A DNA stretch of 41,996 bases, taken from Chrysochromulina tobinii. Taxonomy: Eukaryota. The stretch is from NCBI GenBank assembly GCA_001275005.1, contig JWZX01003061.1, positions 1 to 41,996 of the forward strand, written 5' to 3'. The notes under the pieces were generated by a model. That model did no database searches. It saw only the letters and a program-made list of their open reading frames with translations, and was not told where the DNA came from. Numbering within the stretch: position 1 is the first letter of the stretch; the number at the start of each line of letters is the position of its first letter. Positions 1-41,862 of the stretch are shown piece by piece. Both the position numbers and the translations under genes were made by a program.

Positions 1-191
1 GGGGAGGGGGGCGAGGGGGGGGGCGCCGTGGTGAGCACTTGCATGCAGCTCCTCGAGCCGTTGAGCTTGCGTCGGCCACCAGAGGGCACTGAGAGGCCAC
101 TCAGCGCCCAATCGGAGGCCAATCGGAGGCCAATCAGCGGCCAATCAGCGGCCAATCAGCGGCCAATCTGGTGCACTCAGCGGCTGCTCGC
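1..191 (-). other. GC-donor intron (truncated) with 10-bp repeat and the shared 3' module
   Basis: Donor CAG|GCGAGC; (CTGATTGGCC-like)n repeat at about 105-170; module TGCATGCAAGTGCTCACCACGGCGCC at 22-47 followed by a pyrimidine tract. Confidence 0.8.
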
Positions 192-3149
192 CTGCTCGAT
201 GTAGCGAGAGTCCAGATGTGCGTCGTCTTGGGCACGCGTTGAGGGGCGAGCGGTCCGTATGAGGTGAAGCACGCCGTAATGCTCCGCGAGCTCCTCCATG
301 CCCACCTGCCATCCATCGCACTCAGTCGCAATCAGTCGCACTCAGTCGCACTCAGTCGCACTCAGTCGCACTCAGTCGCACTCGAGGGTACTCAGGCAGG
401 CAGGCAGGTCGAAGGGCTCCCACCCGCCCTTAGAAGGTCATTAGAAGGTCATTAGAAGGTCATTAGAGGGTCATTAGAAGGTCATCAGAAGGTCATCAGT
501 CGAAGGGCTCCCACCCGCCCGTCGGCATTCTTCTTGAGCTCGGACCAGAAGAACTCAAACTCGCGCTCCCCCTGCTGCACCGCGAGCTTCTGCTGCCTCT
601 CTCGCTGAGTGGCCTCGTGCCGCGCCCTGGCGGCGAGCGCGCCGTCCCGGGCGCCACCCGCGTCGTGCTGGGCGTTCACCGCGGGCGCCGACGCCAACGG
701 CAGCACGAAGTACGCAAAGAACCTGCGGGGAGGCGATGGCGCGGTGGTGAGCACGTGCATGCATCCAGGAGCGGACCGACGGCCAACGGCCTCCCTTACT
801 TGGTGCGCAGCTCGGAACGGGAGATGGAGCCCTCGGCGTCGGCGTCGATTGCGAGCATCAGCCGTTGGAGAGAGACGACGGCGACCTCGTCCCTGCGAGA
901 TGCCACGCGCTGCCCAAGCGAGAACGGATGCATGCGCCGAGCCATCAGTGGCAATCATTACATCAATCAACAGCAATCATACAGCAATCATACAGCAATC
1001 AAACAGCAATCAAACAGCAATCATACAGCAACATAGAGCAATCAGAGGCCATCAGCACTCGTGGAGCTCACCTGCAGATCGATGAGCCCGTACGCGAGGA
1101 CGCAGGCGACGAGCGAGAGCGCAAAGGCAAGCAGCTTGGGCAGACGCTCCAAGTCCGCGAGCGCCGTGATGAGCGCGTGCGGCAGCGGCAGCGCCCCGAG
1201 CCATCTTGCGGCATCGAGCTCGAAGATCTCGAGAGCACTTGCGTTCACACTTGCGTTCACACTTGAGTTCACAAAGGAGTTCCCAATGGTGGGCGGGAAC
1301 AGCGAGCCGCTCATGGCTGCTGCGGCTGTGGCGGCGGCGGTGGCGGAGGATGCGGAGGAGGAGGCGGCGGAGGCGGCGGAGGCTGCGGTGGCGGAGGTGG
1401 CTGAGGTGCCGTCGATGCCAAACAGCAGTTGACCGAGGAGGGTGACCACCTCGGCGCGTGGGGCGAGGTACACGAGGGTGATCACCGAGAAGCCGAGGCA
1501 GACCTGCGCCATCAGAGGCATCAGAGGGTCATCAGAGGGTCATCAGAAGGTCATCAGAGGGTCATCAGAGGGTCGTCAGAAAGTCATCAGAAGGTCATCA
1601 GAAAGTCATCAGAGTGTGGAGAGGCCTAGGCCTTACCTTGGCTGGCGTGGCGGTGACACACGGGAATGTGAGTAGACGGTTGATGAAGAGTTGCACGCAC
1701 GTGCACACGAGCAGCAGATCGAGCCATCTGGCCAACGGCTCGTCCCACCATCGGGGCACCTGGTAAAGGTTGAGAGCAACGAGCCAGAAGATGGCGAGCC
1801 AGAGCGACCAGCTGAGCACGAGCAGCCCGATGGTCGTGGGGAGCCAATGCAGCCCGCGACGCTCCTGTGGGGGAGGGGGGCGCCGTGGTGAGCACTGGCA
1901 TGCGGCGGTTGCATGCTGGGGAGCCCATGCAGCCCGCGACGCTCCTCGTGACGAAGCTTCTGCTGGCGAAGCTCGTGACGAATCTGACGAATCTGACGAA
2001 TCTGACGAATCTGACGAATCTCTGTACCTCGTGACGAAGCTTCTGCTGACCCCGTAGGGCGCGCAAGGCGACACGGCCACCCTCGACGAGCGCGTCGTAG
2101 TGCCAGAGCAGCACGAAGGCGCCCCAGAGCAGCAACGAGCGCACGACGAACAAGAAGAACTCAAATGGGAACGTTGTGTGCGAGCCGGGGTAGAAGACGG
2201 CGCAGGCGTACGCGGGGCTGCTCGGGACGGCGCCTGCGAAGTCCTCGAGTCTCAGCTCGCCGTCGGAGGGCTGCGTGGCGCACACGAAGAGCTTGGCGAA
2301 GCCCACGCAGCCGGCGACGAGGCCCGAGGTGAAGAACTGGAGCTTCTTCGCTGTGACGATGAACTCGATGAGGCCGTACCTGATTAGGGAGGCCATCCGA
2401 AGTCATCAGAGGTCAACAGGGGTCATCAGAGGTCATCAGGGAGAGCCCAGGCAAGGTGGGCACGCTGCCACTTACTCGTCGAAGTCCGTAAAGTACTTTG
2501 CGGCTGCGAGAAGGATGACCATCACGTCGGAGACGCCGTACAGAGGAAAGAGGAAGAGGAGCCTGATGAAGAGCGAGAGCGGGCTGCGGATCGTGCCCCA
2601 GATGGTCAAATCGGACGGCTCCATCGCGTAGATCAGCCGGGCCGCGCACCACTTGAGCCAACCGCGCGGTGGATCGGCGTGGTGCATATCCTGCTTGGCG
2701 CGGAGCTCGCGGAATTCGAGGCCGAGGTCGAGCATGACCGAATCGACAAGAGAGCGCTTCACCTCAGGCCAGAGCTCGCCGTACACGTTGTCGACGACGA
2801 TGCGCACGGCTCGCGGCATGGCGTGGTCGTGCAGCGAGTTCAGCATCGTCGCGCCGATCGAGCTCATCATGCGGCTTGCCTGCAGGGCGATGACCTCATC
2901 GGCTTTTTGCATGCTGACGCGCCTTAGGGAATTGAAGCCCTGGTCCACGAGATTCTGCACTTCGCCCACCACTGGTATCTGGTTGATTACCGTCTCGTAC
3001 GCAATGGCCATATTGGCTTGGGCTTCGACAGCATGCCGAGCGGCAAAGTCGAAGAAAAGCTCATCCTCGGGTGGCGCGGCGGTGTTGCGCGGCCCGGTAA
3101 TCGTGGCCCACTCGGTCCGCGATGAAGGCTCTCGGTCGCGGGCGGCCAT
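192..3149 (-). CDS. Multi-exon multi-pass membrane protein with C-terminal EF-hand-like loops, 3'-truncated by the window edge
   Basis: Exons 3149-2476, 2379-2028, 1864-1637, 1503-1072, 909-800, 722-515 and 305-192 join in frame, with phases checked at every junction. Several hydrophobic segments are present. EF-like loops are DADAEGSISRSEL and, across a splice junction, KNADGRVGMEEL. Confidence 0.85.
306..514 (-). repeat. Intron with (CTAATGACCTT)n and (CTGAGTGCGA)n arrays and a duplicated donor junction
   Basis: GT at 514-513 and CAG at 308-306. Positions 410-429 repeat 501-520. Confidence 0.85.
723..799 (-). other. Short intron carrying a diverged copy of the shared 3' module
   Basis: GTAAGG...TGCATGCACGTGCTCACCACCGCGCC...CCCCGCAG; splicing restores the frame (RTK-FFAY). 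Confidence 0.85.
910..1071 (-). repeat. Intron with (TGATTGCTGTW)n array
   Basis: CAG|GTGAGC donor and GGGCAG acceptor; 11-bp repeats at about 965-1045. Confidence 0.8.
1504..1636 (-). repeat. Intron with (CTGATGACCYT)n array
   Basis: AAG|GTAAGG donor and GCGCAG|GT acceptor; repeats at about 1510-1613. Confidence 0.85.
1865..2027 (-). other. Intron containing a copy of its own spliced junction, a 9-bp array and the shared 3' module
   Basis: GAG|GTACAG donor; (ATTCGTCAG)n at about 1976-2020; junction copy at 1917-1965; module at 1879-1903; CCCACAG acceptor. Confidence 0.9.
2380..2475 (-). repeat. Intron with CTGATGACCT repeats and CCTCCCTAATCAG acceptor
   Basis: GA|GTAAGT donor; phase 2 join gives DFDE-YGLIEF. 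Confidence 0.85.
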
Positions 3150-3855
3150 CTGTATCGAAACGATTGTGGCAAGCGGAGAGGAGCAAGAGAGGTTCCGCCG
3201 CCGCCACCGCCGCCGGCGTGAGCGAGACGCTCTTGCCCGAAAGAGGTGAATGGACAAAGAAGGAAAAAAGGGTTCTGCACTGCGAACATGTTTTCCCACG
3301 GTGTTTTTGAACCGAGAACTCACTGAGAACTGTCCTGTACACAGGCTCTGCCTGTGTCTTGGTGTCTGTAACGAGAGCCAGCGTGAGGAGGAGAGAGGCC
3401 GATGCACTGACCGAGCTCAGTGCGAGCGCCGAGCGGGAGCTCCTCAAGGTTCTCAAGGGATGTTTATCTCCCTTCTAGCGCATGTTCAAACCCAAATTCA
3501 CACCATGCGGCGAGGATCCTCAAGGTCGACGCAATCCCCTGAGGCGCGCGACCCCGCTCGCGCGCTACGCACATCTGTCTGATATGTGCGCGACGCGACC
3601 CGCCGGTCCAGGTAACGACCAGGCGGCGCAAGCCTGTTTCGTTATCTCTTATCTGGACTACAATGTAATACAAATTACCGTTCCCGGAGTCTTTTTTCCC
3701 AAACCCCGGCGTCTTTTTACCGGTACGGTACCGCTTTGGGCGAGAAGGCGTCTCGCAATCGCCTTTGGTGCTACTTCTGTGGTACCGGAGGGCGAGGCGT
3801 GTCGGGACGGGACGGACGCACGCGGCGAACCGGACCTGCGCCGCTGCGCCGCTGG

Positions 3856-4889
3856 ATGGAGCGCCGGGATGTGCACGCGCGCAGGTTCGCACTGTTTGGC
3901 CTCCTTGCCGGCCTGCACGCGCAGAACCCCTGCGAACCGCGCGTGCAGGCTATGTATGCTGCATCTGGTCATCCGCCCGTCATGTGCGGTGACGCCGAAA
4001 AGGAGCAAATGGAGGTGGCGCGCCGTTGGAAGGGCGCGACTCCGGCGCATCGCCGTCGGTGGCGCAATCCGAAAGCCTGTCCCAGAGAGACCAACTTTAG
4101 CACACTCGAGCAGCTGTGGCCAGCTGGGCATTTTCGCGGCCCACTGAATGGGCCGAGGAGCTACTTTAGGCGAGTGCCCCCTCACTTCCTCGGATACCAC
4201 GCTAACTTCTCCAACTGCCGCCGGAAGGTTTATATCGACATTGGAGCGAAACACTTCGACTCCAAGGAAGGTTTCCTCTCAATGTTGAAGTTGTACACGC
4301 CGCTCCTCGACTTTGATGAGTATTACGGTAGGACTCCTCACAGCAATCTCCCATATCGGAATCACGCTCGCTCGCTGGCTGTGTGACGTTCGCTGGATCG
4401 AGTCTCGCACGACCCCGCCCAGCCTTTGAAGCCGTCGCTGGCTTTTACAAGCTGCCGCCGCACGACGAGCTCGTGCGCCTCCTCATTAAGCAGGGCATGC
4501 ACCCCACCCGTGCGGCAACCTTTTCGCGTCGCCACTTCTTCCTGCAGGCGTTCATTGGGTCTCGCTCGAAACCAGAGACGACGCCTTCGACGATCGGCTT
4601 CTCTGACTTTTTGGAGACGACGCTCGGCCTGCAGCCAGCAGACGCGGTCGTCGTCAAGATGGACGTGGAGGGGTATGAGTTCGACATCGTGCAGACGCTG
4701 CTTGCCGACGGGACGCATGCGCTCATTGATGAGATCATGCTTGAGGTGCACTATGGCCATCCTTACATGAGGCAAACGTACAACTGGTGCCGCACACCGC
4801 AGTTCTGGTGCTTCTACACGTTGGAGAACGCCACGAGCATGTACCAGTCGCTCAGAGACGCGGGTGTCTACGCGCATCACTGGCCGTGA
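3856..4889 (+). CDS. FkbM-family (Methyltransf_21-like) SAM-dependent methyltransferase, 2 exons
   Basis: Exons 3856-4327 and 4423-4889, with a GT-AG intron at 4328-4422. Motifs KVYIDIGA, YYAFEA, VVKMDVEGYEFDIV and IDEIMLEVHY. Start codon uncertain. Confidence 0.8.
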
Positions 4890-5017
4890 TGGCGTTTATT
4901 GGTTCCTTCACCACACACCCATGTTATTCGTCATTCCGGTCTGAACCGCAAAGGCCGACGTTTCAGGAACTTCTGTACTGTGAATTCAGGAGGGTTACCG
5001 GTACGGCGCGGCCAACA

Positions 5018-6754
5018 ATGCACGAGCCCATCATGCCGCCCGTAGGCCGACCGTTTCTGCTCAGAGACGAGCAGCTGCGTAGCTCCCTTCAGGTGGATGC
5101 CTCGGAGCAGGCAATGCGGCGCGTCTGGGCCAAGCTAGAGTCGGGACTGCCGCTATCGATTGGCGTGCTCGGATCATCCGTCGGCATGTCGGGTGGGTGC
5201 CAAGTTGAGTATCAACCGCAGCTACGGTGCTCCCAGTTCGACGGCGTGCAAGTGCAAAAGCGCTTTGCGCGCGGCTATGGCGTCGTAGACAGCGAGATGC
5301 GTGGCCTGCTCCATAATGCCGACCGACCTGTCCGCGGCTTCGTCTTGCAAGTGCTGGATTGGATCAATGCGACGTGGCCTCATCACGCGCACCGAATTGA
5401 GAACGCAGCGGTCGACGCGTGGACGGCCAAGGCTATTGAGCCGTGTCTGCTCTCCAACGAGCGTATCACAGCTTCAGATCTCTTGCTGCTGGAGCTTGGT
5501 AGCCAGGGATGGCACCCGAGTCAAGCGGCCGCCTCCGAGCGCATCATCCGTAAGCTGCTGCGGATCGCATCTGGCGACGGCGGTGTGCCACCGGCGATGA
5601 TGATGGTGACCACCCGGCAGTGGTGTGGTCACAGCGTGCACGGCCTACGGCGCAAGGAGCGGCCAGTCGTCTCTCGCACGTGGGCCGGCATCGAGGACGT
5701 CTTTGCGAGCTTCTGTACCGCGTATGGGATGGCGTGTCTCTCGATGCGCGACGCCATCTTTCACGACGTCGTGGCAGGACGGCCCAATTTCACAGTCGCC
5801 GATGTCGCCGCCGACTGCCTTCACCCCGAGCAGTCCCGCTTCGGCTACCATTACATGGCAGATGTGATCATTCACTTCATGCGGCGCTCCTGGCTGCAGT
5901 ACAAGGAGCAACGAGTGCGCTCGTCATCAGCTGTGGTTCACGCCAAGGTCACTGTGGTTCACGCCAAGGTCACGCGTGCGTCCTTGCCGCCGGCGATCGT
6001 GCTTGTCAACCGCGGACGTGAGGGCCACATGTCGTGGCGGTGTTACGACTTCTCGACCGCGGCAACGGCAGACGCAGCGATGTTGGTCACGATGCAAGCT
6101 GCAGCGCGGCCACAGCTCCTGTGGCAAAGCATGGGTGGTGACGGCGGAGCTGCCCCGATTGCAGACATGCCAGCGTGCGACGTGCTGCGACGATGCGTGC
6201 TCAAAGCCACGCGCACGCAGAATGGGAACTGCCTGCGTGGACGTGGCCACTGGCAGTTCTGTACGCGAACGCTTGCTCCACGTGCGGCGTACAAGCCGGG
6301 GCTCGTGTCCCTGCTGCCGGGTGCAGATCTTCGATTTGTTGTGGACGCGCGTGCGCCCTTTGCAACTGTGGTGCATGCTGCAAACGGCACGTCTGGGCAA
6401 CCAGGCGACGCTGCGGTGTTGGCACTCACGTATCTCACCTCGTACCAAGACATGGGTGTGGCGAGCGTGAGCTGCCAGCATGGCTGCTCATGCGTCCCCC
6501 AAAGGCTGGACGCGATCCAGTTGGCACAACCGTCTGATGTGCCGGTACCCACGCTGCAAAGGCACCGGTCGGGTGCGGATCGTACCATCACGCGGAATGT
6601 GTCCGTCGCAACGGTCATGGAAATTCCAATCCGTGACGCATCGAGGGCGTGTGCCATCCGCATCGTCAACATCCCGCGAGCGGGCAGCGATAAGTTAGCT
6701 GTCGCCAAATGGAAGCTACTTCAGGTGCGCATCGGCTGGGATGTGGGCACGTGA
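5018..6754 (+). CDS. SGNH/GDSL-like hydrolase or acyltransferase domain protein
   Basis: Long ORF with block I IGVLGSSVG and catalytic-type DCLHP. Likely ATG at 5018 (MHEP); the ORF is open further upstream. Confidence 0.7.
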   Translation: MHEPIMPPVGRPFLLRDEQLRSSLQVDASEQAMRRVWAKLESGLPLSIGVLGSSVGMSGGCQVEYQPQLRCSQFDGVQVQKRFARGYGVVDSEMRGLLHNADRPVRGFVLQVLDWINATWPHHAHRIENAAVDAWTAKAIEPCLLSNERITASDLLLLELGSQGWHPSQAAASERIIRKLLRIASGDGGVPPAMMMVTTRQWCGHSVHGLRRKERPVVSRTWAGIEDVFASFCTAYGMACLSMRDAIFHDVVAGRPNFTVADVAADCLHPEQSRFGYHYMADVIIHFMRRSWLQYKEQRVRSSSAVVHAKVTVVHAKVTRASLPPAIVLVNRGREGHMSWRCYDFSTAATADAAMLVTMQAAARPQLLWQSMGGDGGAAPIADMPACDVLRRCVLKATRTQNGNCLRGRGHWQFCTRTLAPRAAYKPGLVSLLPGADLRFVVDARAPFATVVHAANGTSGQPGDAAVLALTYLTSYQDMGVASVSCQHGCSCVPQRLDAIQLAQPSDVPVPTLQRHRSGADRTITRNVSVATVMEIPIRDASRACAIRIVNIPRAGSDKLAVAKWKLLQVRIGWDVGT

Positions 6755-27200: not shown

Positions 27201-29902
27201 CCTTCTTCATGGCATCGAGTTTGATTTGATACTCGTTTCGGACGGTGATCAACTCTGCCTTGAGCTGAGTGACGCCCTGATCGAGCGAAGCCTCCTTCTG
27301 CTGATGCAGCCGCTCGCTCTTGTTGTGTCGCGCCTCGATTGAGTACGATGCCCACGTACCGAAGAAGTTTGCAAGCTCGGGCGACTTCATCCGGCTCGTC
27401 GCCGCCAAAAGCCGCCGCTTGAAGATCACCCTCTCCTCCCACATGCCGTGCCATGCGGTCCAGCCGCGAGCCTGATCCTTTTTGAGGATGCGGCGAGCGA
27501 TCATCTCTGTCAGTTGCTTCACGCGCAGCTTCTTCTGCCGATCGAGCTCCTCTTGGTGCGCCCGTTGCTTCGCTTCGAGATCACCACCTGCCTGGCCAAG
27601 AAGCTCCCGAAGCTTGTCACGCTCCCTGGTCAGCGCGTTGATCTCGTCGGCAGACTCGGAACGCACCTGAGCGAGTTCCGCACGCAGCTCCGCGACTCCC
27701 TGACCCAGCATTGCCTCGTTCTGCTGATGCAGCCGCTCGCTCTTGTTGTGTCGCGCCTCGATTGAGTACGATGCCCACGTACCGAAGAAGTTTGCCAGCG
27801 CGGGATTCTTCATCCGGGCCGCTGCAGCCTGCAGCCGCCGCTTGGCGGTCACCCTCTCCTCCCACATGCCGTGCCAGGCGGTCCAGCCGCGAGCCAGATC
27901 CTTTTTGAGGATGCGGCGAGCGATCATCTCGGACAGGTGTTGAACGCGTTTTTCCTTCTCCTTCTCCTCCCTTTCACGTTGCTCGATCAACTGCTGCTGG
28001 TATGCGGCCATGCCGCCGTCATACTCTGTAAGCTTTTTCATCAGCGCCGCTGACTTGCTCTCCGCGAGGCCGAGTTTTGTCTCGAAATCTGCGCGCTGGC
28101 GAGAGAGCTCCGCACGCAGCTCCGCGACTCCCTGATCGAGCGAAGCCTCCTTCTGCTGATGCAGCCGCTCGCTCTTGTTGTGTCGCGCCTCGATTGAGTA
28201 CGATGCCCACATACCGAAGAAGTTTGCCAGCGCGGGATTCTTCATCCGGGCCGCTGCAGCCTGCAGCCGCCGCTTGGCGGTCACCCTCTCCTCCCACATG
28301 CCGTGCCAGGCGGTCCAGCCGCGAGCCAGATCCTTTTTGAGGATGCGGCGAGCGATCATCTCGGACAAGTGCTTCACGCGCTGCTCTCTCTGCCGTTGAA
28401 GCTCCTCTTGGTGCGCCCGTTGCTTCGCTTCGAGATCACCGCCTGCCTGATCCAGCCGCGCACGCAACTCATCGCGCTCCTTCACCACGGTCTGGAACCT
28501 CTTCTCAAACTCCACGCGGACCCGGTTGAGCTCATCCTTCAGCCCCTCGGCACCGTCGGTGAGGAAGGCCTCGCGCATCTTGAGCTGCATCTGCTTTGCC
28601 TTGTCCACGGCTTTCTCCCAGTCCTGACGCCAGAATGCATATGCGGCGGAAGTCTCCGGCGCACGCAGCTTGTTGGCGACCCTCTGCATCCTCTGCTTTT
28701 GGATGACCTTCTCCTCCCACGTCGTGTACCAGGCTGTCCATCCTCGGCCAATGTCTTTGTTCATGATGCGTCGCACGATCTGCCGCCGCAGCAGCTCGAT
28801 GCGCTCCTCTCTCGCCTTGGCCTCCTGCTCTGCGAGTAGGCGCTCCTTCTCCTCAACGCTGCCGGTGAGCCCCTCGAGCTCCGCGGCCAACTCCTGCCGA
28901 GCCTGCTCCGAGGCGGCGAGCCGCACCTCGTAGTGCTCGCGGAGCTTACGTAGCTGTTCTTCCAGGTACGTCACTCCGCCCGCTGCCAAGGCTTCGCGTT
29001 CTCTCGCCTTAGCCATCGCCTCCTTGATCCTCGTCTGATCCCAGTCATGTTTCCACGTGCCATAGGCGAACGACATCGCAGGTTTTATAAGCCGCATCCC
29101 CGCCCTCCGGATGAGTGCCGAATTGCGGGTGCGCTCCTCCCACATGACGTACCACGCCGACCAGCCGCGCGTGATGTCTGCATTCATCATCCTCCGAGCA
29201 ACCTGACGGCGAAGCAAATCGACCCGAGCTTGCTTCTCGCGCTCTTGGAGAGCCTTAGTCTCTTGCTCGAGAGCTGAGAGCTCATTCATTGTGCCCTGTT
29301 GCGCCATTATGGACTGCTCTTGAGCCTCCTTGCGCACCCGCGCCATCTGGGCCTCCATCTCTTTGCGCCACGCGCGAATCGCCTCTTCATCCTCCCTTGA
29401 GGCGCCGCTTCTCCTCGATCTGGTATTCGTGACGCTCCTTGCGCTCCCGCGACAGCGTTGTTACTGCCCGGCTGAGCGCCGACTCGAGCTCACGCACACG
29501 CTTCCGCAGCACAGCACGCTCTTCGGCCCCGGACATCTCGTATGCTTTCGTGACGGACGGAGACAGCAGCGACCCTTGTTGCACCGCACTCGACGACAAC
29601 CCCGCGGCTGGCATACTCGCAATACTCGCAATACTCGCAGGCGTGATCGGGCGCATACTCTCTCTGGTGAGGGGGCGTGATTCTGGTGACCCAGAGCGTG
29701 ACCCGGGCGACCGTGTGGCCATTTGCAGAGCAGGGAGTGATGCCACGCTAGTCAAACTCCGAGTGTACGGAGACGCAGAGTGAGACCGTAGCGGCGCCCA
29801 GTCTTTTCGCGTCTTCTCGCGCAGCGCCTTGTTCAACTCGTCATGCTGAGAGAAAACGCGCATGATGATCGTTTCAATGTGGCCTTCGGAACGGGAGGCC
29901 AC
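24262..29902 (-). CDS. Very large coiled-coil protein with nine Trp-rich (Sfi1-like) repeats and four C-terminal EF-hands
   Basis: ORFs 29902-29387 and 29358-24262 join if one G at 29394-29396 is removed. Nine RGWxxW repeats; EF loops DKDGDGEVSKAEF, DADGGGSLAPKEL, DRDGDGEVSKAEF and DSDGGGKLNYKEL. Confidence 0.85.
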
Positions 29903-36193: not shown

Positions 36194-38603
36194 ATGCTCG
36201 ACCTCAATCGTCGATCTGTCGCCGTCGCTGCGACGGCGCTCATGGCCGTCGTCATCGTCTGGACCCGCCAGCCGGCTTCTTCATCAGCACCCGCGTCTTC
36301 TCCATCTACCACAGCCGCTCCTGCTCACCAAGATATACACCGCGCCATCTCCGAAGCCGTGCTGGCCGTTAGTCAAGGCGGAGCGGGCAGCGGGGCTGAT
36401 TCTGCAATGGACGAGGCTGTTCGCTTGTTGTCGGCGCTACGGACACGAATTTCAGCGTCTTCGGTGGAGACGGTGCAAGGCGAATCACCAAAGACTGGCC
36501 ACAATGAACATTTGCTTTGGCCGCCGGCTCCGCCATCTGCTGGGTCCGACCTAATCTCAGAACCGCCGATCGCTCAGTCGCTGGGCGCGCCCGTGCCGCT
36601 ATCGACGCCTTCGCCATATCCCCCGCCACCACCGGTCGCAAGGTCCTCTTCAGCTGCCATGCCTGCAGCGTCTGTTGCGCCCGCCTCGCCGCAGTCTGCA
36701 GTGTCCCGCTTCCTACGCCACTCGCCAGCACTGCTGCGGCTACACGCGCATGCCACGCAGCTGCGGCTGTACGTCTACGAGCCGCCCCTTTCCGCCGGCT
36801 GGTCGGCGCGCAATCTCACGCGCAGCTTCCCGCGCTGCGCCACCTTTCAGTGGAGTGGAGATGCAGAGTTGACGGAACGGATACGCACCCACCCGACGCT
36901 CGCCACTACCGACCCCTCGCGTGCGGATTATTTCGTGGTGCCCTTCCTCTCCAAGTGCTACTTCAACTACGTGGCCAAGTACCGGCTCGCGCCTATGGAC
37001 AACACGCTGCACGCGGTCCTCAGCTACCTAAAATGGAGCGGACCGTGGTGGTCGCGCCATCCTGAGCGTCATCTCTTCTTCTTCATGAGTGGTGCGCGGA
37101 CTTGATTGCGACTGATGGCATTCTTCATGAGTCGTGCGTGGACTTGATTGCGACTGAAGGCATTCTTCATGAGCGGTGCGCGGACTTGATTGCGACTGAT
37201 GGCATTCTTCATGAGTGGTGCGCGGACTTGATTGCGACTGATGGCATTCGATGGCGTCGGATGGCGTCCGACGGTGCATGATTGCCTCCACTTGATGGCT
37301 TCTGATGGCCTCTGATCACCTTTGTCGTCCTCCAGGTGTCGGCGCGGGCATAGTGCCCTCCTGGCGGCGCTCCCTGCAGCAGAGCGTCTTCATAGTCGCC
37401 GAGGGCGATAGGCAAGTGGATTACTTCCGCGAGGGCCACGACATCGTAGTGCCGGGCAAGGCGAGCATGGCCCTCTGAGTGCCCTCTGATTGCCCTCTGA
37501 TAGCCCTCTGATGACCTCTGATTGCCTTCTGAGTACCTTCTGATTTCGATTTCCCTTTGATTGTCCTCCGTAGCCAACTGATTACCCTCCGAGATTACCC
37601 CCGAGATTGCAGGTGAGCACCCACCACAAGCGTGAGCAGAGGTCGCCGTTGGAGCGCAAGTACATGGGGGTCTTCCGCGGATCACTCGATGCAGCGCTTC
37701 GCGACTCCGAGGGCGGGCGCGTGCGCAAGCGCAACAAGCTGCGCCGCTGGCTCGCCCAGACTCTGGAGGGCGATCGTGGCTTCATCTTCTCAGGTCGCAA
37801 ATCCAAACGGTATGCCGAGGAGACTGATGACTGATGACTGATGACTGATGACTGATGGCTGATGACTGATGACTGATGGCTGATGACTGATGACTGATGA
37901 CTGATGACTGATGACTGATGGCTGATGACTGATGGCTGATGGCTGATGACTGATGACTGATGGCTGATGACTGATGGCTGATGACTGATGACTGATGACT
38001 GATGGCTGATGACTGATGGCTGATGACTGATGACGGCCTGCCGAGGAGCCTGATGCCCTCGGATGGCGTCTGTGTGCGTCTGAGTGCGTCTGAGTGCGTC
38101 TGGTTCCCTCCTTCATCAGGTACGTCGACGAGATGGACAACTCTCGCTTCTGCATCATCCCGCGTGGCAACACACCGTGGACGCGTCGCTTTTTCGATGC
38201 GGTCGTGCGTGGCTGCATCCCGGCCGTGCTGTCCGACCCGGTGAGCTTTCCTTATGAGAGGCTCATCGACTTCCGAAACTTGACCATCAAATTGCCCGAG
38301 CAATGGACGCCGCACCTCGCGCGCGAGCTGCGTGCCGTGAACGCGAGCGCCATCGTGGCGCTCCACCGCAACTTGATGCGTCTCTGGCCTGCTTTCGTGT
38401 ATGACAGCGAGCGCGGCGGGTGCGCGTTCGAGATGCTACTGCTCGAGCTCGCTGCCCGCCGCCGACACTTTTATGACACGTGGCCCGCGGCCACTCCCAA
38501 CACGCCGCAGCACTTTTGGTCGCCCGTGCGCGGCGGCCTCTTTGAGTTGCCTGAGGCGCGCAAGGTCGGCCCCAGCTGGGGCGCGGGCGCATTGCCGCAT
38601 TGA
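36194..38603 (+). CDS. Exostosin-family (GT47) glycosyltransferase, 4 exons
   Basis: Exons 36194-37091, 37336-37460, 37613-37809 and 38120-38603 join in frame. Motifs LYVYE, TTDPSRADYFVVP, HDIVVPG, SRFCIIPRG and GCIPAVLSD; type II N-terminal anchor. Confidence 0.92.
37092..37335 (+). repeat. Intron with four 42-bp tandem units spanning the donor junction
   Basis: Units start at 37079, 37121, 37163 and 37205. Confidence 0.9.
37461..37612 (+). repeat. GC-AG intron with (CCCTCTGAKKG-like)n repeats
   Basis: AAG|GCGAGC donor and TTGCAG|GT acceptor; phase 0. Confidence 0.8.
37810..38119 (+). repeat. Intron with about 30 copies of the 7-mer CTGATGR
   Basis: Array at 37824-38033; acceptor CCTCCTTCATCAG|GTAC. 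Confidence 0.9.
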
Positions 38604-39045: not shown

Positions 39046-41862
39046 TCAAGCTGAAACAGATGTCCCGTCAGCGTCCCCATCGGACGCGTTTGCCACGACG
39101 CGCGTCCTCGGCAAGAACGACTCGCGCTGCCTGCGCACGACCTTGCCGATGCTGTTGACGCGGGGCTCCTCCTTCTCAGCCCTCTCTGGAGAAGGCTGTT
39201 GGCGCCACTGGCGGTTGGAGTAGAAGGCGAGCGCCTCGGCCTTGTGGCCAGCGGTGGGCGCCGCCGCGATGATGATGGAGCGGCGCTCGGCGCCCGCGGC
39301 CTCGGTAGAAAGCTGCTTGACTCGCCAAGGCATGTTGAGCCGAGTCGCGACCGCCATCTCCTGCGCGCGCGCCATCTCGAGCACTTTGGCCATCTCCTCC
39401 TGAGTCTGCGAGAGCGTCGCCTCCATGGCCGAGAGCGCGAGCCGCGCCGCGACGGCCTCGGCCTGCGCCCGCTCCTTCTCCTTCTCGAGCTCCTTTTCGA
39501 GCAGCGCGGCGGCCTGCGCCGCCGCTTGGGCCGCGGCCGCGGCCATACGTTGCTCCATGAGCTCCGCGGCCTGCGTCTGGGTCGCCGCGACCTCTGCCTG
39601 CAATGCGACGCGCTCCTCCGCCGCTTGAGCTCGAGAGCTCTCAAGCTGCGCGCGGAGGCTCGCGAGCTCCGCTTGCGTCGCCTCGAGCCTTGCGGCCGAT
39701 TGCACGCTGGTCGTGTTCAGCTGCTCGCGCACCGCCTCCAGAGCTGCCTGCGCAGCAGAGGCATTCTGGGCCGCTACCGCCGCCATGACCTCCGCCTCCT
39801 GTTTCTTGGCCGCCATGACCTCCGCCTCTTGCTGCTTGGCCGCCTCGCGACGCGCGAGCTCATCCAAGCACTCCCGTAGCAACGACTGGCTCTCATTGAG
39901 CTGATGACGGCTCTCATTGAGCTCCCTCGCCACCCGCCCCTGCTGCGAATTCGTCATCGCAAGCTCCGCTTTGCATGCGCCCAGCTGCGAATTCGTCATC
40001 GCAAGCTCCGCTTTGCATGCGCCCAGCTGCGAATTCGTCATCGCAAGCTCCGCTTTGCATGCGCCCAGCTCGGCGCTCCGCAACTCGAGTTGCGCGGCCT
40101 CTTGCTCGCGCCTTACCTTGAGGTCCGCGAGGACCGTCTCAAACTGCGCCTGGGACACCTCGAACTCCTTGACGAAACTCCACGCCTGCGCCTTGGAATG
40201 GAGGCAGGCCTCCAGCTCGGTTCGGACTGCCTGCAGCTGCACGTCGGTCTGGGCCTGCGTCTGCTTACTGGTGAGCAGCTCCGCGCGCACCGCATCGAGC
40301 TCCTCGCGCCTTGTCTGCAGCTCGGTTTCAAGCGTCCGCACGGTCGCCTCGAGGGCAGTTCCAGCGTCAAGGAGCGCCGCGGACCGCAGCTTCGAGGCGG
40401 CCAATTCGGCTCCAAGTTCGGCCAATTCGGCTCCAAGTTTGGCCAATTGCGCCTCGTGCTGGCGCGCCACCTCCGCCTGCTGCCGCGACTGCTGCCGCGA
40501 CGACGCCTCTGCTTGCGCCCGCGCCGCCTCCACAGCCTGAAGCGCCGCCGTCTCGGCGCGCCGCGCCGTGGCGAGCGCCGCCTCGGACTCGGCGCGCGTC
40601 GTTTGGAGAGTCGCCGCCGACTCGACGGACAACGTCTGCATGGCGAGCCGCACCTGTGGGGAGAGGGGTTCGGGCGCCGTAGTGAGCACTTGCATGCAGG
40701 CCTCGAGTCGACGGACAACGTCTGCATGGCGAGTGCCATGGCGAGCGCCGTCTGCATGGCGAGTCGCACCTCTAGAGCTCGACCAACCCAATCAGACGCA
40801 ATCAGACGCAATGAGACGCAATCAGACGCAATCAGACGCAATTCGTCACTGGCACCTCTGTCAGCTCGACCAATCCAATCAGACGCAATCAGACGCAATC
40901 AGACGCAATTCGTCACTGGCACCTCTGTCAGCACGACCAATCCAATCAGACGCAATCAGACGCAATCAGACGCGATTCGTCACTGGCACCTCTGTCAGCT
41001 CGACCTCCTTCGCGGCCACGAGCCTCTCGAGGGCTGCCTGGGCCTCGGCCAGCTGCGCCTCCTTCTCGGCCACCTGCCGGCTCAAGGCTGCCTGGGCCTG
41101 TGACGATTGCGCTTCGGTCGCCGCCACCCTCGCCTCGAGAGCCGCCTGCGCAGCGGCCAGGCTCGCCTTCTCCTCCACATTCCAGCGCAGCTCCTCCCGG
41201 GCCGCGGCCAGCTGCACCTCCTTCTCAGCCACCTGCTCGAGCAGCGCCGCTTGCGCCTTCGACGATTGGTCTCTGCTCTCGGCCAGCTTTGTCTCGAGAG
41301 CCGCCTGTGCCGCGACCAGACACGACGTCTCCTCTAAACTCTTGCGCAGCTCCTCCTGTGCTGCGGTCAGCTGCGCCTCTCGCTCGCCCACCATCTTCTG
41401 CAGCGCCTCCTGCGCCTCCGAGGACTGTGCTTGCGTCCGCGCCAGCCTCGTCTCGAGAGAAGCCTGCGCCGCCGCGAGCTGGGCCTCCTTGTCGGCCACC
41501 GTCCTCTCAAGGGCACGCTGAGCCTCCGATCGCTGCGCTCGCACCGTCTCAAGCTCCGCACGAGCGACCTCAAGCTGCTTTGCAGCCTCCGACTTGGACT
41601 TCGCAGAGGCTGCAAGATCGTCGCGCAGGTTCGCCACGTCGGCCTCTAGTGCGCGCCTTGCAGCTCGGAGTGCCTCGACACGCCCCTCCATCTCGGCGTA
41701 CACCCACTCCAACTTCTTATCGTTGAAGACTGTGACCGCATTCGGATCGAAGGGCTGCTCAGGCCCGTCCATGGCGACAACTCGGCCACGTGCCGTGGGT
41801 GTGCGGAGGATGGCTGGGCCCAAGAATGTTGTGCTCACCAGCAGCAGCATTGAAGAGACCAT
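39046..41862 (-). CDS. Long Ala/Glu/Gln-rich coiled-coil protein with signal plus transit-like leader, 2 exons
   Basis: Exons 41862-40990 and 40653-39046, both whole-codon lengths. Leader MVSSMLLLVSTTFLGPAILRTPTARGRVVAM; LGACKAELAMTNSQ occurs three times. Confidence 0.8.
40654..40989 (-). other. Intron with 67-bp donor-junction repeats, a spliced-junction copy and the shared 3' module
   Basis: GAG|GTGCCA donor; (CTGATTGCGT)n repeat; junction copy at 40749-40784; module at 40673-40698; CCCCACAG acceptor. Confidence 0.9.

Follow-up and report, generated by a model that had tools for sequence, protein, structure and literature searches.

The origin of new spliceosomal introns has long been debated, and to our knowledge most gained introns lack an identifiable source. 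Several described systems lie close to the one reported here. The neointrons of Daphnia pulex are attributed, in the passages of PMC4202315 that treat them, to staggered double-strand breaks, with exon-intron repeats of 4–12 bp and inserts whose sources are mostly unknown. Introners are defined, in the portion of Gozashti et al. that concerns their detection, by similarity reaching within ~10 nt of both intron ends, and those presented in the relevant sections of PMC9860276 and PMC12130899 leave short duplications of fixed length, the Chrysochromulina example having a 4-bp duplication and carrying the 5′ splice site. According to the same sections, MAGs of marine Chrysochromulina sp. have introners; for Chrysochromulina tobinii, the table of the 2025 survey gives 0 families, and in the 2022 survey, which included the species, its name appears among the rows listed only where the surveyed assemblies are enumerated. 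Tandem genomic duplication of an exon segment containing AGGT, as outlined in parts of PMC3443670, recruits splice sites from the duplicated exon and gives the layout ABAB with neither a foreign insert nor a shared module. SD-MMEJ by polymerase theta and nick-derived small tandem duplications (passages of PMC7407515 and the abstract of PMC8355091) produce short duplications at staggered breaks from nearby templates, and mass production of introns with a shared module does not figure in these descriptions. Finally, Chlamys Penelope-like elements and the Dualen and R9 LINEs leave, in the cases related in part of PMC9977147, 5′-truncated, very short inserts with long variable duplications.

The window analyzed here, which is the whole stretch of 41,996 nucleotides from C. 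tobinii (contig JWZX01003061.1), contains a predicted intron of 163 nt in whose interior the end of the upstream exon (A) and the start of the downstream exon (B) are repeated and directly joined (Table 1). As in Daphnia, the end of the adjacent exon is directly repeated at the far end of an insert and presence/absence polymorphism is found, here at two sites of a related intron family and not at the 163-nt intron; compared with what the consulted passages of PMC4202315 give, however, the repeats are 21–28 nt in this intron and 12–50 nt in the family, and the inserted sequence is a 3′ splice module that recurs and derives from other introns. As in introners, the sequence is common to many introns (204 distinct ones), and it carries an acceptor and recruits the donor in the way some sections on introners portray, whereas the similarity is confined to the 3′ part. 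Neither a fixed 3–9 bp duplication nor terminal inverted repeats (at least 14 nt were tested), which mark DNA-transposon introners, were found. Short duplications, repeated rounds of synthesis and filler templated nearby are shared with SD-MMEJ as far as it is set out in those passages, microhomology being seen here at a number of 5′ joins, and variable long duplication and 5′ truncation, both seen in the family, are shared with the non-LTR elements, from whose inserts, as portrayed in part of PMC9977147, the present ones differ in that the mobile part is the 3′ end of an intron. Our literature search, which covered mainly open-access papers, found no description of the module family or of introns containing their own junction. 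The published filter for similarity at both ends would probably miss this family, which would explain why the surveys did not record it. We consider it fairly likely, with a probability of about 0.6, that the 163-nt intron was built by serial staggered breaks with duplications of 20–30 bases and microhomology-guided templated fill from nearby DNA.

Table 1. Features of the predicted 163-nt intron, its flanking exons and a second intron of the window
Feature	Position	Strand	Basis or remark
Upstream exon, unnamed multi-membrane-spanning protein gene	2028..2379	minus	open frame; homologs P0003, P0004
A, final 21 nt of upstream exon, AG-ended	2028..2048	minus	sequence comparison
Predicted GT-AG intron of 163 nt, layout x-A′-B′-y, ends GT...CAG (2027-1865)	1865..2027	minus	sequence and reading frame
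x (62 nt), source of the GT donor; degenerate second exon-end copy with expanded 9-mer, then 6-nt linker	1966..2027	minus
Array of five perfect 9-nt repeats of exon-end origin	1976..2020	minus	other alleles have fewer copies
A′, exact exon-end copy (21/21)	1945..1965	minus	AG at 1946-1945 is the inferred former acceptor
B′, copy of downstream exon start, first letters GA	1917..1944	minus	27/28 identical
First 8 nt of the family motif, then a 5-nt linker (13 nt)	1904..1916	minus	sequence comparison
y core, 24-nt family motif including branch-point-like CTCAC at ~1892-1888	1880..1903	minus
C-rich tract of module y and CAG acceptor	1865..1879	minus	CACAG ends 154/204 family introns
B, first 28 nt of downstream exon	1837..1864	minus	sequence comparison
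Downstream exon	1637..1864	minus	open frame; P0003 alignment spans junction
Second predicted window intron with the same 3′ module	40654..40989	minus	inner junction copy at ~40770

The sequence-only reading of this DNA had reported that A is fused to B inside the intron exactly at the splice point, and this is borne out to the nucleotide: positions 1965-1945 match 2048-2028 at 21/21, positions 1944-1917 match 1864-1837 at 27/28, and the two copies abut precisely at the predicted splice point. In a chance control of 48,742 GT..AG pairs from both strands of window positions 5001–27000, an internal self-junction copy with at least 8 exact bases on each side was found in 0/48,742 pairs, the best reaching 7. 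GT...AG ends, a branch-point-like motif and a pyrimidine tract, which are U2-type features, are all present in the intron, and CTCAC probably acts as the branch point, judging from its consensus and position. The reading frame is kept when the full 163 nt are removed, and it is shifted by retention of the intron or by use of the inner AG as acceptor. The homolog P0003 (54% identity, 156 aa) aligns over the exon junction without gaps, and P0004 has one additional residue near it. We infer that the stretch is a spliceosomal intron, its splicing being predicted from these features. Pfam gave 0 families for three host exons and P0004, and P0003 gave EF-hand matches below the cut-off only; in our rough model of the host gene, the part 3′ of intron 4 was out of frame and was excluded. 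The predicted RNA fold of 1835–2060 has a z of −2.24, with 3/200 shuffles equally good, and shows no hairpin clearly masking the inner AG. None of the 24 inverted pairs of at least 14 nt in 1–6000 lies within the intron, and an Rfam search with window positions 1–3000 gave 0 matches at E ≤ 1. A scan of viral contigs returned one match.

Other alleles are represented by four further records, P0001 (ENA) and P0002, P0005 and P0006 (JGI/ENA), all of them translated straight through the intron; the DNA was deduced from these predicted proteins. They have the same inner fusion, their own point changes and differing, smaller numbers of the 9-mer, and in P0001 the unit of B copy plus module is apparently present twice. 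Because the same layout recurs in these four records with independent differences, the locus is considered real and an assembly chimera very unlikely. Mis-joining of spliced or repeated reads might be imagined in so repeat-rich a region, but the inner copy also has its own mismatch and the architecture is common to 20 other loci, which together make such an artefact extremely improbable.

The earlier statement that a plain ABAB duplication is inadequate also stands, as module y is foreign to the exon and only x would fit such a scheme. The upstream exon finishes with a 23-mer (2050-2028) that opens with GT and closes with AG, and x matches it at 19/23 positions once the 9-mer array is collapsed; the sequence-only reading had overlooked that x, too, is a degenerate copy of the exon end. 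Because of this match, and because the doubled 9-mer is absent elsewhere in the 599 kb of loci compared, x is, as judged from the sequence, copied from a local template, and it may have begun as a duplicate of the GT...AG 23-mer. A reading of x as a widespread repeat module was ruled out, the doubled 9-mer being confined to the window among 130 sequences.

If the serial reading is right, the first step would have duplicated the AG-ended exon end around a GT-starting filler that itself came from the exon end, giving an 83-nt GT-AG intron, A/x-A′/B (slashes mark splice sites), whose acceptor was supplied by the duplicate. In the second step, a break at the A′ acceptor would have led to duplication of B, the 28 nt at the start of the downstream exon, around an insert of ~50 nt from the 3′ end of another intron, with its branch point, C tract and CAG, by which the acceptor would have shifted downstream and A′B′ would have been stranded inside the intron. 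The 13 nt upstream of the y core probably represent an aborted first copy of module y. The junction copy would be old gene sequence trapped between two insertions, the synthesis would have proceeded by polymerase theta-like, microhomology-guided template switching, and selection would have retained only cleanly spliced products. Because serial insertion with long duplication yields a junction copy, a spliced template is unnecessary, and the copy is most plausibly a side effect of serial duplication. The anatomy, both single-step forms at other loci, empty alleles at two sites and near-identical modules in neighboring introns are observations; step order, splicing, the break and the polymerase are reconstructions. 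In the first intermediate, however, the acceptor would have been a weak GAG and a clear branch point would have been missing, and taking the steps in reverse requires a GA donor; a single event with several template switches is therefore possible for the 163-nt intron.

Module y belongs to a large family. It occurs four times in the window, three times within one gene, and in the second window intron that carries it the exon-end part of the inner junction copy is gapped, the exon-start part matching at 19/20. An exact scan with the 24-nt motif, which covered 5/64 parts of the metagenome collection, returned 132 stretches, with ~1800 estimated. From 320 distinct motif contexts, 91 without a clean acceptor and 15 too close to an end were set aside, and 204 introns remained after de-duplication, their splice sites being predicted and not annotated. 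An anchored copy of the downstream exon start was found in 120/204 of them, and controls gave 0.1% when partners were shuffled and 1.5% when the exon sequence was shifted, at a score of at least 12, a cut-off that hides shorter duplications. The downstream exon starts with GT in 154/204 and with GC in 18/204, which means that in most introns the duplicate furnishes the donor. Family resemblance is confined to the 3′ part, the 5′ parts being copies of host exons with a median of 27 nt. In the simple cases (n = 96), the duplication measures 12–50 nt (median 27) and the insert 37–78 nt, and the two lengths are negatively correlated (rho −0.59, n = 96), which suggests a minimum intron size, a pattern that diverged duplication tails would also yield. 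The single-step form A/B′y/B stands alone at other loci, and its mirror form A/xA′/B, in which the exon-end duplicate gives the AG, stands alone at L064, L095 and L099. A second module type with a CATCAG-type acceptor has a downstream-exon copy at 60/141 sites versus 5.5% in controls, a count inflated by tandem units. Extrapolation from four modules per 42 kb to the genome of 59 Mb (a size taken from part of PMC4580454) gives ~5,600 modules, an order of magnitude only, as three of the four share one gene.

A conserved, multi-copy 3′ module might also be expected of a conventional introner, that is, a non-autonomous DNA transposon that inserted twice, and in Polarella classes 4/5 and 6/8/10, as presented in passages of bioRxiv 10.1101/2020.10.14.339549, the donor likewise comes from the duplication. 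The duplications of 12–50 nt are variable, however, against the fixed 3–9 bp of published introners in the sections cited above, the intron has no inverted repeat of at least 14 nt, and the module lacks a fixed 5′ end and carries fragments of donor exons. This explanation is largely refuted by these features, and we regard it as very improbable.

Overlapping contigs of different assemblies reveal two presence/absence sites in the family. An 81-nt intron with a 33-nt duplication (L068:731-811) is missing from L010 and L036, and the three tandem units of L043 are missing from L062; such empty alleles could also be precise loss between repeats. The family is likely still active. The earlier proposal of a recent intron gain is thus upheld as to gain, and as to recency it applies to the family with its polymorphic sites, while all four close alleles contain the 163-nt intron, and neither an empty allele nor a one-step form of it came to light.

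Donors can be named for some insertions. The 48-nt insert of L068 corresponds at 47–48/48 to the 3′ end of the neighboring intron, which lies 524 nt off, and matches only one other locus. Among same-strand module pairs at most 4 kb apart, similarity is at least 0.7 in 23/214, versus 1.2% of 20,399 cross-locus pairs, the 23 including some tandem copies or repeated gene segments. At L058 and L042, one intron holds bases of the duplicated exon of another, joined by 5-nt microhomology, and these donor-exon fragments indicate the direction of copying. Microhomology of at least 2 nt was found at the 5′ join in 9/13 non-tandem cases with zero gap. At their other end, solitary duplicated modules reach or can slide to the AG in 81/105 cases by script, and in more by eye; motif insertions with long duplications that end before the AG were found at L008, L009, L013, L025 and L076, and such inserts finish 0–17 nt past the core motif. 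An AG end is thus not obligatory.

These junctions bear on the possibility that the same serial history ran by target-primed reverse transcription, each step copying the 3′ end of an intron RNA (an excised intron or pre-mRNA) into nicked DNA. A non-LTR enzyme would then leave 5′-truncated inserts with long variable target duplications, preferably in the transcribed gene. Long variable duplications, inserts of 37–78 nt, microhomology at the 5′ join and a mostly fixed 3′ end at the AG make up the usual non-LTR signature, and the local donors do sit within the same gene. Chlamydomonas LINEs and Penelope-like elements also combine long duplications with very short truncated inserts in the examples of PMC9977147 that we drew upon. 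On the other hand, some inserts end just beyond the core motif and lack the AG, x of the 163-nt intron came from the adjacent exon and not from the intron family, and the inspected examples have no tail. The branch of a lariat would moreover be expected to stop copying through the motif. Reverse transcription at each step is the main rival explanation, and one that we hold to be doubtful.

Introns that contain their own junction are not confined to this locus. In addition to the downstream-exon copy, a second, exon-end copy was found in 12/120 module introns versus 0.34% of shuffled pairs, some of the 12 being tandem units by eye. A scan independent of the module, which demanded a GT/GC outer donor and thereby made 2 nt of any B-like prefix trivial, gave 54 candidates, of which a rule removed 35 (chiefly antisense readings or tandem repeats in coding sequence); with 2 added by eye, the curated set comprises 21 introns, including the 163-nt one. 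The comparison with shuffled pairs thus revealed a clear excess of self-junction matches in related introns, as the sequence-only reading would require. In 21/21 curated cases, A′ ends with AG or B′ starts with GT/GC, versus 23% of 7,752 exon-like positions. The 11 cases without AG all (11/11) have a B′ that starts with GT/GC and an outer 5′ end that echoes B′ for 3–12 nt, the pattern that would follow from a second duplication spanning a donor already in place. In the 5/5 cases without GT/GC, to which the 163-nt intron belongs, A′ ends with AG, as expected if the first intron had used the duplicated AG, although the exon end is AG in 45/99 simple introns regardless, which weakens this half of the test. 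B′ and the exon can be told apart at 13 sites; of these, the outer 5′ end tracks B′ at 9, the exon at 2 and neither at 2.

The exact correspondence of the fused copy to the spliced junction is what one repair event would give, in which a break at the A/B point was patched from spliced mRNA or cDNA, or from an intact sister or intronless allele, with x and y added simultaneously. Such an event would also avoid the weak intermediate through which both step orders of the 163-nt intron pass, and the outer 5′ end bears no relation to B in the five cases whose B′ lacks GT/GC. It does not predict a spliceable intermediate in 21/21 cases, however, nor B-like outer 5′ ends that track the intronic copy at 9:2. 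Unspliced exon-intron borders in the window (~516-410, 37087-37336 and 40989-40770) were copied by the same process, and the haploidy of the species suggested in part of PMC4580454 would limit the alleles available as templates. A single patching event of this kind seems unlikely to us. Among the routes that the sequence-only reading had listed, the data favor two insertions that each left a long target duplication, as the single steps exist alone and a spliceable intermediate is available for all curated cases; a template of cDNA or an intronless allele would be superfluous and nothing here speaks positively for it, although it is conceivable for the 163-nt intron. Polymerase theta-like templated synthesis, also listed there, would fit the anatomy of the junctions.

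Returning to serial breaks filled by repair, we favor repair synthesis over retroposition because the fillers come from adjacent DNA, restarts of synthesis are visible and the 3′ ends are not obligatory. Template switching might predict an excess of homology at the 3′ junction, however, and none was found past the AG between similar modules (2.83 versus 2.94 nt, p = 0.48). The predominance of solitary modules ending at the AG would also suit RNA-primed insertion.

The class of self-junction introns, the two polymorphic sites and the local donors are new, and they point to a route of intron creation and remodeling that is apparently active and absent from catalogues. We tentatively suggest, as a possibility rather than an expectation, that in C. 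tobinii and its kin the 3′ halves of introns are copied, from intron RNA or by a dedicated polymerase, into staggered cuts 12–50 bases apart, often in the same gene, and that thousands of introns have been made or remodeled in this way, each copy becoming a new donor with no need for transposon ends. If this is true, these would be self-propagating half-introns that cause a mass gain of introns unseen by current introner searches. The family itself already suggests that surveys which need similarity at both ends undercount intron gain. An intron with its own spliced junction need not mean reverse transcription, and such self-junction copies can misdirect the mapping of reads and the calling of genes. 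A single cultured alga of small genome size displays the source of a new intron (the 3′ end of another intron, sometimes a neighbor), the scar of 12–50 nt, the empty allele and the intermediates of multi-step gain, and the mechanism by which its introns arise is thereby directly testable.

Copies of unspliced exon–intron borders were seen in several introns of the window (see the table). The second intron carrying the module, the shared 3′ intron part, encloses a copy of its own joined exon ends, and its unspliced border is copied two further times with a 67-nt period. In another intron of the main intron's host gene, approximately 22 nt across the donor, consisting of the exon end and the intron start in unspliced form, is duplicated and flanks an array of 11-nt repeats. 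A repeat unit in a different gene likewise crosses an apparent exon–intron border. As for the module introns near the window start, the middle of the 77-nt one resembles a stretch about 20 nt inside the downstream exon and is possibly an old, degraded duplication of it, while the coding-like sequence ahead of the motif in the truncated one may be a copy of a downstream exon lying outside the window. Repeat-rich introns are concentrated in a few genes of the window, in contrast to the long, apparently intron-poor run, which includes a cyclophilin/U-box gene and others that we take to encode an FAH-type hydrolase, a kinase-like protein and a transporter.

Features in the window and at other assembly loci (L handles, local coordinates)
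Location	Strand	Feature
1-190	-	Module intron truncated by window end
~306-516	-	Intron with duplicated donor region
723-799	-	Module intron, 77 nt
5000-27000		Apparently intron-poor genes
27271-28449		Tandem repeat, long period 432 nt, apparently coding
37079-37249	+	42-nt unit, four copies
40654-40989	-	Second module intron
41040-41472		Tandem repeat, long period 159 nt, apparently coding
L001:2840-3060		Chrysochromulina-type intron with duplicated exon-like segment
L025:6675-6944		Second duplication across old acceptor
L039:1866-1509	-	Self-junction intron
L052:3190-3342		Second duplication across old acceptor

Among introns enclosing their own junction at other loci, that of L039 keeps AG in the internal copy while the present exon ends in AA, which suggests that the exon end was altered after an acceptor shift. 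At L052 and L025, the second duplication takes in the old acceptor, so that the end of the upstream exon appears once more as the 3′ terminus of the intron. L001 is a contig from a viral collection; it has phage-like genes, ends in the intron listed in the table and is probably chimeric or contaminated.

In the alleles translated as P0002, P0005 and P0006, the main intron amounts to 48 in-frame codons without a stop, so that gene callers translate through it, and its retention might be tolerated in these alleles.
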